From assembly GCA_021774015.1 (NCBI GenBank), contig JAJFJO010000015.1, positions 1-26,247 of the forward strand: DNA of 26,247 nucleotides, read 5' to 3'. The DNA comes from Gammaproteobacteria bacterium (GTDB taxonomy: Bacteria; Pseudomonadota; Gammaproteobacteria; Coxiellales; Coxiellaceae). The notes beneath the pieces were generated by a model. It did no database searches. It saw only the letters and a program-made list of their open reading frames with translations, and was not told the DNA's origin. Positions 867 through 6,888 of this stretch are shown in pieces; the first letter of the stretch is position 1; each line of letters starts with the position of its first letter. The position numbers and the translations under genes were made by a program.

Positions 867-956
867 TGAATGCCTATTCCATAAAAATATATTAAGCACC
901 AATTTTACCAGAGAACCAAGGTTTTCGCATAATTTAATCAAAAACTTCAAATTAAG

Positions 957-981
957 AAAAGGCGGGGCAAGCCCGCCTTTT
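957..981 (-). terminator. Rho-independent terminator, potentially bidirectional
   Basis: AAAAGGCGGG-GCAAG-CCCGCCTTTT, a 10 bp stem with T-runs on both strands, just downstream of the 1005..1199 gene. Confidence 0.85.
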
Positions 982-1004
982 GAAAACAAATTGCTTATGC
1001 GCCA

Positions 1005-1199
1005 TTAAAAATGGGATGCCTGATAGTGTGTTGGTTGGTTTAACTGGGTAGATAATTCACCCAATCTCAACGCTAACGATTTCAAGTAAATTTTATCTGC
1101 TTTCTCCATGAGCTGGAGTAAATCAGTTAATCTTGAAACCTCAACATCAATATTTTGCATGCTCATTTCCAAAGGAATATGTTTGTTATCCTTTATCAT
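1005..1199 (-). CDS. Small hypothetical helical protein (64 aa)
   Basis: ATG preceded by GGAG RBS within a leader repeat; ends just before the terminator. Confidence 0.7.
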   Translation of the reverse strand: MIKDNKHIPLEMSMQNIDVEVSRLTDLLQLMEKADKIYLKSLALRLGELSTQLNQPTHYQASHF

Positions 1200-1276
1200 G
1201 TGCCATCTCCGTTTTTTAAAATAAAAAAACAGGAACGGACCCCCTGAAGGAAAGTCTCATTCCCATCAGGGTTAAA
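1200..1276 (-). repeat. Leader repeat copy 5
   Basis: Minus strand TTTAA-CCCTGATGGG-AATGAGACTTT-CCTTCAGGG-GG-TCCGTT...AACGGA-GATGGCAC-ATG. Confidence 0.8.
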
Positions 1277-1308
1277 TGAAATGTCTTGTAAGCCCTGTAA
1301 CACAAAGG

Positions 1309-1671
1309 TTACAAGTGACTGACTTGATCAATCCATTCTTGCAGCTTAGGATCAATTAACCGATAAAGGTTTTTAACATTGATCACCGCAGCAGTGCGTT
1401 TTTCACCGGCTTCAGTTTGCCATTCATCGTATTCTAGTTCCCCAGAAACAGATAAATAGCTCCCCTTCTCGACCCTATCTTTAATAGCATCGACCAGGTG
1501 CCCAAAGCACTGCAATGTATGCCAAGCCGTTTTTTCCACTTTTTCGCCTTTCTTATTCGTAAAGCGTTTCGTGGTTGCTAACGTGAGTTTCGCAAACGGT
1601 TTTTTACCTTCATTTTCATAAAGAGTTACTTGGCCTACAAAGCCAACAAGATTTACTGTGTTTTCATACAT
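1309..1671 (-). CDS. ssb: Single-stranded DNA-binding protein (second copy), no acidic tail
   Basis: NTVNLVGFVG...LTLATTKRF....GEKVEKTAWHTLQCFG....KGSYLSVSGELEYDEW is a typical SSB OB fold. Confidence 0.93.
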   Translation of the reverse strand: MYENTVNLVGFVGQVTLYENEGKKPFAKLTLATTKRFTNKKGEKVEKTAWHTLQCFGHLVDAIKDRVEKGSYLSVSGELEYDEWQTEAGEKRTAAVINVKNLYRLIDPKLQEWIDQVSHL

Positions 1672-1748
1672 AATGATTCTCCTTTAAGAATGTTAAAAAA
1701 GGAAATAATGAAGCCATGTCGGGCTTATTATTCCCGACTTGGGTTAAA
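1672..1748 (-). repeat. Leader repeat copy 4
   Basis: Minus strand TTTAA-CCCAAGTCGGG-AATAATAAG-CCCGACATGG...TCCTTT...AAAGGAG-AATCATT-ATG. Confidence 0.75.
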
Positions 1749-1757
1749 CAACGTGTG

Positions 1758-2060
1758 TTATTGAGTGCTGAGATGAAGAACTTGACTACCATAATAATCA
1801 CGGATCTGATCCATGCTAATTTGGCGATCACTTTTCTTTTTGCTCGGCAAGGTGCTGGGTTTATAAAACCAGCGCTCTTTGGCTTTTGACCATTGAAACC
1901 CCGCTTCGCGAAGATCTTGAGCATAAGGTTTGGTCTGGCCAGATAGCCATAACCAATTACCAACGACTTCAACAGTTAATCCAAGGTGTTGGATACTGTC
2001 AATAGCGCGCTCAAGCTCTCCTTCCACTCGGCCCCAATCAATATCAGCGTTATTGTTCAT
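1758..2060 (-). CDS. Small mobile-element protein matching the C-terminal domain of proteins often annotated as 'molecular chaperone DnaJ'; no J domain here
   Basis: EVVGNWLWLSGQTKPYAQDLREAGFQWSKAKERWFY...SMDQIRDYYGS pattern; no HPD motif. Confidence 0.65.
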   Translation of the reverse strand: MNNNADIDWGRVEGELERAIDSIQHLGLTVEVVGNWLWLSGQTKPYAQDLREAGFQWSKAKERWFYKPSTLPSKKKSDRQISMDQIRDYYGSQVLHLSTQ

Positions 2061-2143
2061 CACGATCTCCTTCCTGTTTTAAAAAAGAGGAGAACCACTA
2101 TGCCCCGTGAGGAAGCAGTCATGATTCCCCGAGGGTTATTAAA
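2061..2143 (-). repeat. Leader repeat copy 3
   Basis: Minus strand TTTAATAA-CCCTCGGGG-AATCATGACTGCTT-CCTCACGGGG-CATAGTGG-TTCTCC...GGAGA-TCGTG-ATG. Confidence 0.8.
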
Positions 2144-2162
2144 CAAAGTTATTATCAAAAAA

Positions 2163-2567
2163 TTAATATTCACTTGGTAGCAGTAAGACATGCTTTTTAA
2201 ATCCACCATCGTAAATCAGAAACAATCGTAAAAATGGATCAAGTTCTGATGCAACCAGTGATTGGCTGTCGATAGATAAATCGCTGTAAGGATACTTATT
2301 GCTAAATAACAAATGATCATTGCCATCTGTTAACCCTAATACCGCTTTATCATTATTATGGCTAAAATCAGCCGTGATAAATGATTCTTTTTCCCAGAAA
2401 TCTCTGGAAAAAATAGCAATATCGTCAATTAACCAATGACACTCAAGTTGTTCACGCAGGAATGAAACGCCATCGGTAAAAACAATTCCAAGGAAGTGTT
2501 TATACCAGTTGTCAGTGCCGCTGAACTGTCTTGCCTCTAATGCTAATTTTGAGTTGTAAGTGCTCAT
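2163..2567 (-). CDS. DUF6876-like protein
   Basis: FTDGVSFL......HWLIDDIA...AVL..TDGND......YSD...LLLPSEY C-terminus; GGAGG RBS before the ATG at 2567; ATGA overlap with the upstream gene. Confidence 0.75.
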   Translation of the reverse strand: MSTYNSKLALEARQFSGTDNWYKHFLGIVFTDGVSFLREQLECHWLIDDIAIFSRDFWEKESFITADFSHNNDKAVLGLTDGNDHLLFSNKYPYSDLSIDSQSLVASELDPFLRLFLIYDGGFKKHVLLLPSEY

Positions 2568-2950
2568 AAAACACACCTCCCATCAAACGTTAGGCCGAAC
2601 TCTCTTGATAGATCGAACGTCAACGCTGCTTTAAAACAGCCTTTCCACAAGTCAGCACCAGAAAAGTCTTTTCCAAGCCCTTTCCAGTTTTTCTTGAGAT
2701 ACATTTTCCATTTGGTGACGCCCATAATAAAGGCGTAACTTCGAAGGAATATGTAATCATTAGTTAACGTTGCAACAAAGTCATCTACGTAATTTGAGAT
2801 AACCTTACTATCAAGCTGTTTATTGGCATTTAACAGATGAATCCTGTTATACAAGATCTTGATTAGAGTCCGGTATGGGCCGTGATAAGTCCATCCAGTC
2901 TCATAACCCTTGAGCTTAATTTTAGGATATGAATTAATTGCTTCAATCAT
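2564..2950 (-). CDS. Hypothetical protein (128 aa)
   Basis: ATG at 2950 follows GGAGAAA in a leader repeat; coupled to the DUF6876-like gene. Confidence 0.75.
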   Translation of the reverse strand: MIEAINSYPKIKLKGYETGWTYHGPYRTLIKILYNRIHLLNANKQLDSKVISNYVDDFVATLTNDYIFLRSYAFIMGVTKWKMYLKKNWKGLGKDFSGADLWKGCFKAALTFDLSREFGLTFDGRCVL

Positions 2951-3040
2951 GATTTTCTCCATTAAGTTTTATTAAATAAAACCCAAGGAGAAACGTGATT
3001 GCACCCATCAGGGAAAATCAAATTGCCCCACTGGGCGTAA
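2951..3040 (-). repeat. Leader repeat copy 2
   Basis: Minus strand CCCAGTGGG-GCAATTTGATTTT-CCCTGATGGG-TGCAATCACG-TTTCTCC...GTTTTATTTAATAAAAC...GGAGAAA-ATC-ATG. Confidence 0.8.
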
Positions 3041-3051
3041 GACACAACGTA

Positions 3052-3582
3052 TTATCGGGCATTTATCGCACGATATACCAGAAAAGTCAGCACAGAACCT
3101 AAGACACTTACCAAGCCTAGTATCGAATGTAATGCTTTCGATGCGGCTTTTTTCGTGTCTTTGGACGCGTAACTTTCTTTTTGGACGTGATCAGGAAACG
3201 CTTTTCCCAATAAGTCCGCTTTTAAATCAGGCAAAATGGTTTTTGCCCGTTCAAAATCGGGTATATGAATGCTTTCATGCACAAAAGGTACAATCCAGAT
3301 AAAGTTATGCAATGCATAACAACCAAATCCTCGTGACCGCAAGATGCTTTTGATATGGTTAACCACATCTAGTGCCTCTTTACTACCAGAACAAGTGATA
3401 AACTCTCCATTTTCATGGAGGGTTAGTTCTCTGATCTGATAAGCGGTCATTTTTGTGAGACAAGACAACGACTCTGCTAATGTTTTAACAGCGTGTTTAT
3501 TTGCGCTCACTTTAGAGTTAGCTCTTAATTGAAGCCTCTCTTGCATGCTACCTGAGTTTTTCAGTTTATTTTGTAGTGACAT
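3052..3582 (-). CDS. Hypothetical protein with a single C-terminal hydrophobic anchor (176 aa)
   Basis: GGAG RBS in a leader repeat; C-terminal ILGLVSVLGSVLTFLVY-RAINAR. Confidence 0.8.
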   Translation of the reverse strand: MSLQNKLKNSGSMQERLQLRANSKVSANKHAVKTLAESLSCLTKMTAYQIRELTLHENGEFITCSGSKEALDVVNHIKSILRSRGFGCYALHNFIWIVPFVHESIHIPDFERAKTILPDLKADLLGKAFPDHVQKESYASKDTKKAASKALHSILGLVSVLGSVLTFLVYRAINAR

Positions 3583-3668
3583 AGTGATTTCTCCTTTTAT
3601 TAAAAATAAATCGGAGAAAGCTATGCCTTCCCGTAGGGAAGAAATAAACCTTCCCCACCGGGATTAAA
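3583..3668 (-). repeat. Leader repeat copy 1
   Basis: Minus strand TTTAAT-CCCGGTGGG-GAAGGTTTATTTCTT-CCCTACGGG-AAGGCATAGC-TTTCTCC-GATTTATTTTTAATAAAA-GGAGAAA-TCACT-ATG. Confidence 0.8.
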
Positions 3669-3721
3669 CTTTAACGTCAGGCAAAACGCCTTTCACGCAT
3701 AAGCTAAATTGTTAAAGAGCA

Positions 3722-3897
3722 ATTGTCATAAAGACAAAATTCAAGTCAATGAACATCAAAACAACGGTTTCAAAATAACGATTTTATTTTGTTTGAGGTT
3801 GTCTTTCGCTTCATATTGTCCAACGGTATTGAGTGTATGCTTGATGCTTTTTCATAAAATGAATCTGCGTTCAATACTATTGTAACTATGACAATAT
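3722..3897 (-). promoter_or_regulatory. Candidate sigma70 promoter embedded in long imperfect inverted repeats (possible Frpo-like ssDNA promoter)
   Basis: Minus strand TTGACT (3749-3744), 16 nt, GACAAT (3727-3722); ATTGTCATA 3722-3730 pairs with TATGACAAT 3887-3895; nested stems. Confidence 0.45.
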
Positions 3898-4311
3898 AAA
3901 GGTGGTCAATGATTTAAAATCATTGAAATTAGTGGGCATCGAATCGATATTGATGCGGTGAGCATTAAGCGCTGTCTGCGACAAAACTGTCATGCCGACA
4001 GAAATCAATCGTGTATAGCTACGTTAGGGCTAACACAATTGCGCTTAATGGATTGGGACGTCATTCATCGTTCTGTGATAAATTCACGTGGGTTGCATGG
4101 CAAACCGGAACTTTTAGGACAATTATTATTGTCGCTTGAATGTGGTCTTTGGTGGGTCCTGCTAATCTTCGATTAGGTTCACGACACGTAGGACGGCATG
4201 TGACATTTATAGTAGACGCTTGTTTCACGTTTCATGGCATCTCAGCCATTCATCAGTACTACTTTTGAAAGTCTATTATATCAAAATCACCCTAAAAAAC
4301 CAGTGTTTTTC

Positions 4312-4710
4312 TTAGATTTCAGACTTTTTATCAGTTTGGTTTTCTTCATTAAAAATATGGTCATATAGCTCCTTTGTAACCGTCGCCTTAGTGCTGATCA
4401 TAAATTCATCAACTAAAATCTGTGGCAAAATATCCGTTCGCCCCGCCTTTTCGCGCTTGTGATAATGGATCGTGCCGCGCACATGGATCTGGGATCCTTT
4501 CATCAGTAATTGTTCAGCACGCTCAGCATTTCGCCCAAAGAACACGCACCAATGCAGCTCTTTAAATACTTGCTGTTCGCCACTGTTGTGATAGGCCCAA
4601 TGCTCGGTATAAACAGGTAGACGACATAGTTTACGACCATCTCCATAGGATTTTAGCTTTGGAAAAGTGCCACAGTAGCCAATCAATCGAACCTCATTGC
4701 AAAGTGCCAT
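4312..4710 (-). CDS. ssb: Single-stranded DNA-binding protein (divergent)
   Basis: NEVRLIGYCG..P.L...HWCVFFGRNAERAEQLLMKGSQIHVRGTI OB fold; follows topB. Confidence 0.88.
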   Translation of the reverse strand: MALCNEVRLIGYCGTFPKLKSYGDGRKLCRLPVYTEHWAYHNSGEQQVFKELHWCVFFGRNAERAEQLLMKGSQIHVRGTIHYHKREKAGRTDILPQILVDEFMISTKATVTKELYDHIFNEENQTDKKSEI

Positions 4711-4713
4711 CGC

Positions 4714-6888
4714 TTATTGCTCCGCCTTGTCTTTTTGGGGCGTAGCCAAATTAGGCTTGCCTTTTTGATCCCAATAGACCGCTTTGCAGTCAGGATATTG
4801 GGTGCAGCCCCACCAATAACCTTTCTTCTTTGCTTTTCGTTTAATTAGCTTGCCTGATTGACAGCTTGGGCAGTCAATGTCTGATGGTACTACGGTTTCT
4901 TTCATATGAGGCTTACCCCCCTTGTCTTGCATCAAACCATTGCAATCTGGGTAACGAGAGCATCCCCAGAAAAACCCATTTTTACCTTTTCGCCGAATCA
5001 ATGGCGATTTGCATTTAGGACAAGGATGTTGTGGCCCTAGATCGATACCTTTACCTCTGATTTGTCGAATTTTACTTAAGTCCTCTAGCATAAACTCAAG
5101 CACTTCTTCCTGATCAAGCAAAAAATCTTGCAGGTTACCATGCCCTTCGGCAATGTTATCGAGTTCTTGCTCCCAAGCGGCCGTTATGGCTGGATTTTTC
5201 ATTTGCTCAGGTAACAGATTGATTAATTCACGCCCACGATCCGTTGAAACTAATATTTTTTTATCTCGCTTGATATACCCACGGTTTAGCAATTTTTCAA
5301 TCGTATCAGCACGAGTTGCTTCCGTTCCTATGCCCGCGGTCTCTTTTAAGGTTTTTTTATGTGCCTCATCATCAACAAATTTTGCAATATTTTTCATAGC
5401 AGCAATGAGCGTACCTTCGGTGAATCTAGCCGGTGGTTTTGTTTGCTTAGATAAGCAATGTGTTTCTTTTGATGTAACGGATTCATTTTCGGTTAATTTA
5501 GGAATATTTAATTCTTTTTGTTTGTCATCGCTATCAAGTTCTTCCTGGTTTTTGCTAATAGCCTGTTTCCAACCAAGCTTTTTGGGCGTATTACTTGTTG
5601 CTGCGAAATTGTCATTTTCGCAATTCACCTCAACCTTTCTTTGATTGTATTCATAAAACCCGAGAAATTGGGCAATGTATTGGCGACGGATCAAATCATA
5701 AATAGCCAGCTCATCTTTACTCATCGCACCCGGATCTACCGATTCATTCAGTGTTGGTATAATGCCATGGTGAGCGGTGACTTTTTTATCGTTCCAGACG
5801 GGTGATTTTAGTGTAGCGTCGCAGTGTGATACCAACGCTTTAATCGAAGGATCAATACTGACGAGTGTATTCAATATACCTTCTGCTTCATCGAATTGAT
5901 TAACTGGCAAATAACCTGTATCCGTTCTTGGATAGCTTGTCGCCTTAAATTTTTCATAGAGAACCTGTGCAATTTCAAGCGTTTTTTTTGCCGATAGTCC
6001 AAGTCCACTCGATGCAACCTTTTGCAGGCTTGATAACGAAAAACAGACTGGCGGCGCTGTTTTTTTAGCTTTATCTTCAAATAGTGTCACGATACCGTTT
6101 TTGTCCTCAATTTTCTTTGCCACCGACTCCACTGTTTCTTGCTTTAAGCAATGCCCATCCATATCAGTTAATTCTTCTGGCGCTTGCCAACGTGCTATAA
6201 ATTCGCCCTGTTTGGCTTCAAACAAAACATCTAATTCAAAATAATCAGTTGACTTAAAATTTTCGATTGATCGATCACGCTGGACAATTAAGTTCAGTGT
6301 CGGAGTTTGAACACGACCCACTGATAATACACCTTGCCCAGGTGCGCCAAATAAACAACTGGTTGCCATGGTCATCGACATCCCAATAGTCCAATCAGCG
6401 CGTTGCCGCCCAAGTCCTGCAAGGTAGAGTGGATACGTAGACTCTCCAGGACGAATATTAGCTAACGCTTTTTTAATTGAAGCCTCATCCAAAGCTGAGA
6501 GCCATAAACGCTGTACTTGACCTTCATATTGATAGTAATCGAGAATTTCACGCCCAATAACGTCTCCCTCACGATCAGCATCCGTTGCGATAATGACATG
6601 GTTGGTTTGCTTCAGTAGTTTTTTAATGACAGTCAGTTGTGCTTTCGTTTTTTTATTCGGAATAAGATGCCATTCTTTGGGGATAATAGGTAAGACCTCC
6701 ATGCGCCATGGTTTTAGATTTTCACAATAATGCTCTGGTGGCGCTAATTCTAATAAATGGCCTAGACACCATGTTACTGTAATGCCACTGCCTTCAATGT
6801 AACCGTCTTGCCTTGACCCTGCCCCCAATACGTTTGCAATATCGCGTGCTTGTGATGGTTTCTCGCATAGGTATAGTGTATTTGTCAT
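4714..6888 (-). CDS. topB: DNA topoisomerase III (ICE type) with two C-terminal C4 zinc ribbons
   Basis: Toprim LCEKPSQA, ATDADREG, SVGRVQTPTL, catalytic SYPRTD, GIGTEATRA; CPKC/GCSRYPDC and CPSC/GCTQYPDC; ATG 6888 best spaced from GAGG. Confidence 0.96.
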   Translation of the reverse strand: MTNTLYLCEKPSQARDIANVLGAGSRQDGYIEGSGITVTWCLGHLLELAPPEHYCENLKPWRMEVLPIIPKEWHLIPNKKTKAQLTVIKKLLKQTNHVIIATDADREGDVIGREILDYYQYEGQVQRLWLSALDEASIKKALANIRPGESTYPLYLAGLGRQRADWTIGMSMTMATSCLFGAPGQGVLSVGRVQTPTLNLIVQRDRSIENFKSTDYFELDVLFEAKQGEFIARWQAPEELTDMDGHCLKQETVESVAKKIEDKNGIVTLFEDKAKKTAPPVCFSLSSLQKVASSGLGLSAKKTLEIAQVLYEKFKATSYPRTDTGYLPVNQFDEAEGILNTLVSIDPSIKALVSHCDATLKSPVWNDKKVTAHHGIIPTLNESVDPGAMSKDELAIYDLIRRQYIAQFLGFYEYNQRKVEVNCENDNFAATSNTPKKLGWKQAISKNQEELDSDDKQKELNIPKLTENESVTSKETHCLSKQTKPPARFTEGTLIAAMKNIAKFVDDEAHKKTLKETAGIGTEATRADTIEKLLNRGYIKRDKKILVSTDRGRELINLLPEQMKNPAITAAWEQELDNIAEGHGNLQDFLLDQEEVLEFMLEDLSKIRQIRGKGIDLGPQHPCPKCKSPLIRRKGKNGFFWGCSRYPDCNGLMQDKGGKPHMKETVVPSDIDCPSCQSGKLIKRKAKKKGYWWGCTQYPDCKAVYWDQKGKPNLATPQKDKAEQ

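Follow-up and report, generated by a model that had tools for sequence, protein, structure and literature searches.

A conserved mRNA leader with a candidate two-state fold before establishment genes of MPF_G-type conjugative elements

Introduction

What is the structured module that stands ahead of nearly every gene in a run of small genes next to the transfer genes of a Coxiellaceae genome? We have addressed this question in contig JAJFJO010000015.1 of assembly GCA_021774015.1 (2.48 Mb, 87% complete). The complete 26-kb contig (26,247 nucleotides, nt) was analyzed; we call it the window, and coordinates refer to it unless another locus is named. In an array on its minus strand, a module of 77-94 nt precedes each gene, with the exception of a DUF6876 gene that overlaps its neighbour through an ATGA. 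A previous sequence-only reading had noticed that five gaps share this module, and had considered a translational switch, a single-stranded DNA (ssDNA) structure acting in transfer and a recombination handle. Our analysis indicates that the module is a real, conserved and widely distributed cis-regulatory RNA family that is not in Rfam. We consider it probable, at roughly 60%, that each copy is an mRNA leader with two states that acts in cis to gate the establishment gene behind it.

The establishment genes of conjugative elements (ssb, ardA, radC, orphan methylases) decide whether an element survives on entering a new host. The leader described here is a conserved, unannotated RNA found before nearly every such gene, and offers a concrete, mutable handle on their regulation.

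The module and its five copies

From 5' to 3' the module is made of an AACCC box, a two-tier GC hairpin (H1), a pyrimidine strand complementary to the Shine-Dalgarno sequence (SD) and therefore called the anti-SD, a run of U, and an A-rich tract with a strong SD. H1 is a nested hairpin with an outer CCC/GGG stem, an inner GGGGAA/UUCCC stem, AU-rich loops (e.g. UUUAUU and AAUAAUAAG) and a conserved unpaired AA ahead of the outer stem; two adjacent CCC-N-GGG hairpins had been proposed, and the copies share this single nested structure instead. The anti-SD strand (UUUCUCC-like) is found 5-11 nt past H1 in the window copies and is followed by a U-rich tract. Its pairing with the SD, extended in many copies to the spacer up to the AUG, gives a second helix, H2. 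Preceded by AU-rich tracts, the SD (AGGAGAA) is very strong, and GGAG is located 5-9 nt ahead of the ATG in 80 of the 87 family members described below. The distance from the upstream stop codon to the module is 9-40 nt in most copies, with a median of 37 nt to the outer stem. To describe the pairings we divide the module into four segments: the 5' purine strand of H1 (GGGGAA) with the loop (seg1), the 3' strand of H1 (UUCCC, seg2), the spacer with the pyrimidine anti-SD strand (seg3) and the SD with the spacer up to the AUG (seg4).

All five copies are on the minus strand, and the most inclusive of our covariance models (R3, see below) matches at each of them with its end on the ATG, confirming that the five gaps share one module. 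The first, L1 (3580-3668), makes up the 5' untranslated region (UTR) of orf176 (3582-3052). It runs from a TTTAA box (3668-3664) through H1 (3663-3629; outer strands TCCCG/CGGGA, inner strands UGGGGAAGG/UCUUCCCUA), the anti-SD UUUCUCC (3619-3613) and the AU-rich interior of H2 (3612-3595) to the SD GGAGAA (3594-3589) and the ATG (3582-3580). L2 (2948-3041) precedes orf128 (2950-2564), with H1 at 3036-3003, anti-SD at 2991-2985, SD at 2963-2957 and ATG at 2950-2948. The DUF6876 gene (2567-2163) has no module of its own and, as had been read from the sequence, overlaps orf128 (2564-2950) by an ATGA. L3 (2058-2140; H1 2135-2103, anti-SD 2093-2088, SD 2071-2067, ATG 2060-2058) stands before orf100 (2060-1758), and L4 (1669-1748; H1 1743-1714, anti-SD 1704-1698, SD 1682-1678, ATG 1671-1669) before the SSB gene of the array (1671-1309). 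The last copy, L5 (1197-1276; H1 1271-1242, anti-SD 1236-1230, SD 1211-1206, ATG 1199-1197), precedes orf64 (1199-1005). The word CCCTGATGGG is indeed identical at 1262-1271 and 3004-3013, but the identity is incidental: in L5 the word lies in the 5' strand of H1, in L2 in the 3' strand.

A family of leaders in MPF_G-type elements

Four of the five leaders fold better than their dinucleotide-shuffled versions (z -4.5, -4.4, -2.9 and -2.6). We built three covariance models of increasing breadth, from three L1 orthologues only (R1), from 13 copies (R2) and from 37 copies (R3). When R1 was run unfiltered on the window, the best matches other than L1 itself were the other four leaders (30.9, 23.7, 18.9 and 17.0 bits), and the next in rank were antisense echoes of the leaders. 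Over the entire 2.48-Mb assembly, R2 found these five alone at E<0.2.

The covariance-model searches of other genomes revealed arrays beside MPF_G-type (mating-pair formation type G) transfer genes in further Gammaproteobacteria. Two genomes of the same family carry arrays that are ~90% identical, and arrays of 3-8 copies were present in 11 of 63 other genomes of the family. In a sample of 150 genomes of the class, one for each GTDB family of Gammaproteobacteria, clustered R3 matches were found in 13. Inside 11 kb of the GC-rich genome L073 there are 11 matches at E<0.01; at E<0.05 the number rises to as many as 14. Over the family and class searches together, the arrays range from 3 to 15 copies. 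The leader thus occurs in 13 of 150 sampled families, in Ralstonia and Vibrio records and in marine Coxiellaceae-like metagenome-assembled genomes (MAGs). A phylum-wide sample of 150 genomes gave two weak single matches and nothing more. A search with the topB locus returned two close relatives, together with loci of Legionella fairfieldensis and of a Clostridia MAG from which the modules were missing. With about 90 instances aligned (alignment A7, model R3), the leader is a candidate for a new Rfam family.

The position of the module relative to genes was checked in annotated records. In Ralstonia solanacearum SY1 and the Vibrio parahaemolyticus plasmid pVP157-1, all of the matches (7/7) end exactly on PGAP start codons. 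The SY1 copies are on an integrative and conjugative element (ICE) of the megaplasmid, in the order topoisomerase III ... DUF3577, DUF3275, methyltransferase, helicase ... TraD. Among 81 proteins encoded downstream of modules we found RadC (13), SSB (11), DUF3577 (5), SNF2 helicase (4), DUF6094 methyltransferase (3) and ArdA (2). A homologue of the VirB4-like ATPase is located ~10 kb from the nearest array copies and on the same strand in two genomes (G083 and G091), as in the window, and is farther from some outlying copies. The gene neighbourhood and the proximity of VirB4 place the module in the establishment region of MPF_G-type conjugative elements.

The genes behind the leaders are not constant. 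In a relative that is ~89% identical (genome G013), the gene after leader 1 codes for 273 amino acids (aa), leader 2 and the start of its own gene are missing, and leader 5 precedes a gene of 389 aa in place of the 64-aa orf64 (L005, 11328-12146 and 13436-14671). Different genes thus follow the same leaders, meaning that gene content changes behind a conserved leader.

Two further features were noted in the wider family. RNA domains of group II introns (RF02012, RF00029) adjoin leader arrays in three unrelated genomes (L043, 14510-14660; L073, 3774-3923 and 1568-1645; L070, 57-193). Besides, the word TTAACTTT(A) is found just upstream of the SD in five leaders, and twice in one of them (L042, 7135-7227; L044, 7178-7269; L045, 7030-7121; L046, 6327-6409; L047, 3564-3651); four of them precede SSB genes and one a 134-aa gene without Pfam family. 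We take it to be the same word as the 'epsilon' translational enhancer of phage T7 gene 10.

Three helices

The pairing of the module was examined in the 37-copy alignment. There, 89% of the cells pair versus 69% after shuffling, and double changes were found at 25 of the 27 pairs, including 6 of the 7 outer pairs of H2. The covariation score was 0.518, compared with 0.205 for shuffled alignments and 0.12-0.21 when the partners were slid. Both hairpins are thus supported by covariation, and the SD and start region are paired upstream in a covarying helix.

We also used a test that needs no alignment, in which each segment is paired with the partner from its own copy and with those from unrelated copies, and the duplex energies are compared (87 copies in 69 sequence groups). 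The own partner was better for H1 (-11.3 vs -8.4 kcal/mol, p 1e-10) and for H2 (-10.6 vs -7.6 kcal/mol, p 2e-9). A third pairing, seg1:seg3, behaved in the same way (-10.5 vs -7.0 kcal/mol, p 8e-11), while in the control pairings seg2:seg4, seg1:seg4 and seg2:seg3 own and foreign partners were equal. Hence seg1:seg3 is supported as strongly as H1 and H2. It is a conserved alternative that excludes both of them, one in which seg1 in effect imitates the SD and spacer of its own copy. On the SD/anti-SD hairpin and the mutually exclusive pairings, the data agree with the sequence-only reading.

The kinds of pair also bear on which strand folds. On the sense strand there are 96 G-U pairs versus 21 A-C mismatches; this excess favours the sense strand and, by extension, RNA.

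Energies were then calculated for complete and shortened leaders. The full leader prefers H1 plus H2 (mean -32.4 kcal/mol), and the region from SD to AUG is paired in the minimum free energy (MFE) structure of 80 of the 87 copies. Forcing this region open costs 7.7 kcal/mol if seg3 is allowed to pair again and 13.4 kcal/mol if it is not; the best fold with an open SD contains seg1:seg3 in 58 of 87 copies. When the leaders were cut before the SD, 67 of 87 folded into the seg1:seg3 hairpin, at -21.2 kcal/mol versus -17.3 for H1 alone, i.e. better by 3.9 kcal/mol. The MFE structure of L3 is already in the alternative pairing. In L4 the alternative hairpin has 14 bp (GGGAAUAAUAAGCC/GGCUUCAUUAUUUCC) and is followed by U6. 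These data bear out the earlier idea of a common leader whose default fold shuts the ribosome-binding site and which is able to refold, since the SD-AUG region is generally paired and a copy-specific alternative frees the SD.

Comparison with known RNA elements

No characterised Rfam motif matches the module, so that its novelty stands. At the gathering score, Rfam 15 found no family in the window or in seven related loci, and scans of the same sequences with permissive E-values gave group II introns and chance matches only.

The closest comparison is the radC RNA motif (RF01754), described as a potential 5' UTR of radC, methyltransferase, integrase and anti-restriction genes (Weinberg et al., 2010; PMC2864571). 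The radC RNA and the STAXI motif together are reported to account for 80% of the RNAs found in MPF_G ICEs (Cury et al., 2017; PMC5587801). The module family shares the gene context of the radC RNA, the window copies preceding SSB and small unknown proteins. The structures differ: the radC RNA, of 149 positions, has three hairpins on its 5' side, followed by a conserved linker and, at the 3' end, by a two-tier hairpin, whereas the window modules consist of H1 and H2 only. The 3' two-tier hairpin has a counterpart in H1, and the 5' domain is absent from the window modules. Taking at least 40 bits to the Rfam covariance model as the threshold of membership, we found the radC RNA in one of the 150 class genomes (G150, 86-113 bits), which served as positive control. 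The same model matched nothing in the window at the gathering score, nothing in 900-4800 at E<=10 and, at E<=1, nothing in five genomes with arrays. Therefore, the module is not the radC RNA. In G150, a module begins 28 nt after the end of one radC RNA match, a second match uses H1 of a module as its last hairpin, and the third of the three has no module behind it. This suggests that the module can be the 3' neighbour of the radC RNA and the output part of those leaders, giving a likely function for the 3' side of a motif that has been unexplained since 2010.

STAXI (RF01728) had been proposed as an analogue. In mobile elements it is found, in repeated copies, close to ssb, topoisomerase and anti-restriction genes, and whether it acts as RNA or ssDNA is debated (PMC2864571). 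The module arrays resemble it in being repeated near such genes. However, STAXI is a tandem pseudoknot with frequent UUCG tetraloops that is not tied to start codons, whereas the modules stand one per gene and end on the ATG, and the STAXI model has no match in the window or in the five array-bearing genomes.

In the arrangement of its pairings, the module resembles leaders with four segments and exclusive pairings, one of which sequesters the SD. Translational attenuators and riboswitch platforms (e.g. ermC-type leaders) are built of anti-anti-SD, anti-SD and SD helices, and in the module, too, an upstream purine strand competes for the anti-SD. The module differs in that the alternative pairing is 1:3 and not 2:3, and in that the platform is repeated before the genes of an operon.

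Transcription of the array

A sequence scan found sigma-70-like hexamers, TTGACT-16-GACAAT, on the minus strand at 3722-3749, upstream of L1; they are likely to be the promoter of the five-module operon. After orf64, a strong intrinsic terminator (957-981, minus strand; 10-bp stem with 6 GC pairs and a T-run) closes the operon. A public metatranscriptome (run X20) contains contigs ~90% identical to the array, derived from a relative. One of them, of 1.7 kb, spans L2, L3 and most of L4. Coverage of the array extends from ~1056 to 3690. There is none at 3708-3824, an interval that takes in the predicted promoter and the sequence just downstream of it, and this pattern fits one operon starting near 3712.

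A two-state model and its alternatives

In the two-state reading, the three helices, their conservation, the position at the start codon and the gene context were computed, and from them we infer the direction of regulation and the existence of a trigger. All five modules would lie on a single operon transcript, the first in its 5' UTR and the others between cistrons. In the more stable state (A), H1 (seg1:seg2) would be clamped by the outer CCC/GGG stem and H2 (seg3:seg4) would hold down translation of the downstream gene. In state B, seg1 would pair with seg3 and the SD would be freed; in about half of the copies this pairing would also place a GC-based stem directly before a U-tract, in the manner of an intrinsic terminator. 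The segment seg3 would thus act as a shared negative strand, and the AACCC/GGG clamp would decide the partner of seg1. The balance between A and B would be set by an input that targets the clamp or seg3, for which a protein, processing of the RNA and melting are candidates; such an input would co-ordinate expression of the ssb, radC, ardA, methyltransferase, helicase and small unknown genes. The alternative fold may release the SD, end transcription, or have the two effects one after the other.

Several observations weigh against this reading. State A is on average about 7.7 kcal/mol more stable, so that state B needs a helper, and no candidate for a trans-acting factor was found: the duplex energies of the transcribed stretch 3869-4123 (see below) with the five leaders were similar to those of shuffled sequences (z -1.75 to +1.9). 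The MFE of L3 is no better than that of its shuffled versions (z -0.96). The covariation counts come from alignments fitted to the model and are biased towards its structure. Purine-rich and pyrimidine-rich segments pair promiscuously, and the own-versus-cross controls speak against a pure effect of composition but are no proof of function. Finally, the X20 contigs are unstranded, belong to a relative of ~90% identity and might contain carried-over DNA.

Regarding the possible input, neither an aptamer-like domain nor a leader peptide is evident in the window. Coupling through the terminating ribosome was discarded as a general mechanism given the median distance of the upstream stop from the outer stem, and so were CsrA-type GGA sites, judged by eye, the upstream GGA being in the long stem and not in a loop.

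Two other explanations also place the module in mRNA. The module might be a transcription attenuator, in which the seg1:seg3 hairpin and the U-tract form an intercistronic intrinsic terminator and H1 the antiterminator, setting read-through and polarity, with the pairing of the SD as a secondary matter. The behaviour of the leaders cut before the SD speaks for such a mechanism, and among the 67 that adopt the alternative hairpin the 8 nt after the stem contain at least 5 U in 32 and at least 4 in 48. All five window copies have a U-run directly past the alternative stem, and a terminator scan of 900-4800 gave 11 sites versus 3.2 +/- 1.8 expected, several of them within modules. However, 19 of the 67 have 3 U or fewer and about half of the copies, chiefly in GC-rich genomes, lack a convincing U-tract; the alternative hairpin has a large or branched loop; and transcripts that read through would keep the SD locked, so that both outcomes would be off. 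The 1.7-kb contig of the relative, from an RNA library, is unbroken through L2-L4. We regard attenuation as a tenable but clearly less probable explanation, and it could coexist with the translational one. Less plausible is a passive cassette, with H1 stabilising or insulating the intercistronic region (by protecting the 3' end of the upstream message or a processed 5' end) and H2 tuning a very strong ribosome-binding site, with no switch and no trigger. The modules do occupy intercistronic gaps close behind the upstream stop, their SD is very strong and preceded by AU-rich tracts, and the complementarity test of 3869-4123 found no trans-factor. A passive hairpin, though, has no need of a copy-specific seg1:seg3 pairing that equals both hairpins in strength while three controls are null, and the conserved single-stranded AA with the CCC/GGG clamp suggests specific recognition. 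We therefore consider a merely passive role unlikely.

The remaining two explanations concern DNA. An ssDNA element active on the entering strand would be comparable to the single-strand promoters or priming sites of the Frpo/ssi type, which, like the CUP repeats of IncN plasmids, are DNA-level promoters or operators in plasmid leading regions. The resemblance lies in repeated regulatory modules for early establishment genes such as ssb and ardA; CUP is a conserved upstream repeat with a promoter and a repressor operator. The array is located in an establishment or leading-type region of an ICE, beside ssb and topB, and its hairpins could form in DNA too. Frpo/ssi promoters, however, are long hairpins that recreate -35 and -10 boxes on the template strand, whereas the stems here have just 12-17 bp and the scan found no such hexamers inside the modules. 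G-U (G-T) is 4.6 times as frequent as A-C on the sense strand, so that the template strand folds worse. One of the covarying helices is formed by the SD and the spacer before the AUG, which makes sense in mRNA only. With the structure anchored to SD and ATG in this way, a role as ssDNA in transfer appears very improbable. We give even less credit to a recombination handle or cassette boundary, similar to integron attC sites, that would shuffle cargo genes. It would agree with the gene sets differing between the arrays of different genomes, with one module per gene, and with the genome G013, in which L5 precedes another gene and L2 is missing. But neither co-inheritance of module and gene nor homogenisation within arrays was visible (identities 0.53, 0.51 and 0.50, the last two for modules of different genes in the same genome, mostly in one array, and for unrelated pairs). 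Cores of the attC kind do not delimit the modules: a RYYYAAC-like box (GTTTAAC or ATTTAAC) is present in two of the five copies, and GTTRRRY at the 3' end in none, the SD and ATG being there. No integron-type integrase was found among the window ORFs (open reading frames) examined, and the anchor is the start codon and not the 3' end of a gene.

Returning to the two-state leader, a broader proposal can be made with more caution. The module could be the expression platform so far lacking in a riboregulatory system that is family-wide among MPF_G-type elements and includes the radC RNA, with seg3 both terminating and locking each establishment gene and one factor of the element or the host, acting on the clamp or on seg3, freeing all of them simultaneously. 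We hold this extended version to be speculative and rather doubtful as a whole. If true, it would parallel, at the level of RNA, the zygotic induction for which plasmids use single-strand promoters.

Neighbouring features of the locus

Upstream of the array, also on the minus strand, come the operon of MPF_G-type transfer genes, the topoisomerase III gene (6897-4714) and an SSB gene other than that of the array (4710-4312). Between the latter and orf176 there is a stretch of 730 nt free of ORFs. In run X20, this stretch is covered at 3869-3912 and 3972-4123 with about twice the depth of the array (62-75 vs 32-36), and there is no coverage at 4176-4400. A terminator-like hairpin is located within it (4001-3987, minus strand). 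The region 3869-4123 may correspond to a small RNA or to a separate leader. The same stretch contains a mini-ORF of seven codons (MREGRFA, ATG...TGA; 3677-3700, minus strand) with no obvious SD, ending 14 nt ahead of the CCC in the outer stem of L1.

At the level of the genes themselves, the blastn search of 1000-4800 against plasmids gave no match, and orf100 has just three homologues among 5.8 billion proteins. In orf128, the X20 relative has 104 different letters in place of the 101 at 2814-2916, that is, a replaced coding segment.

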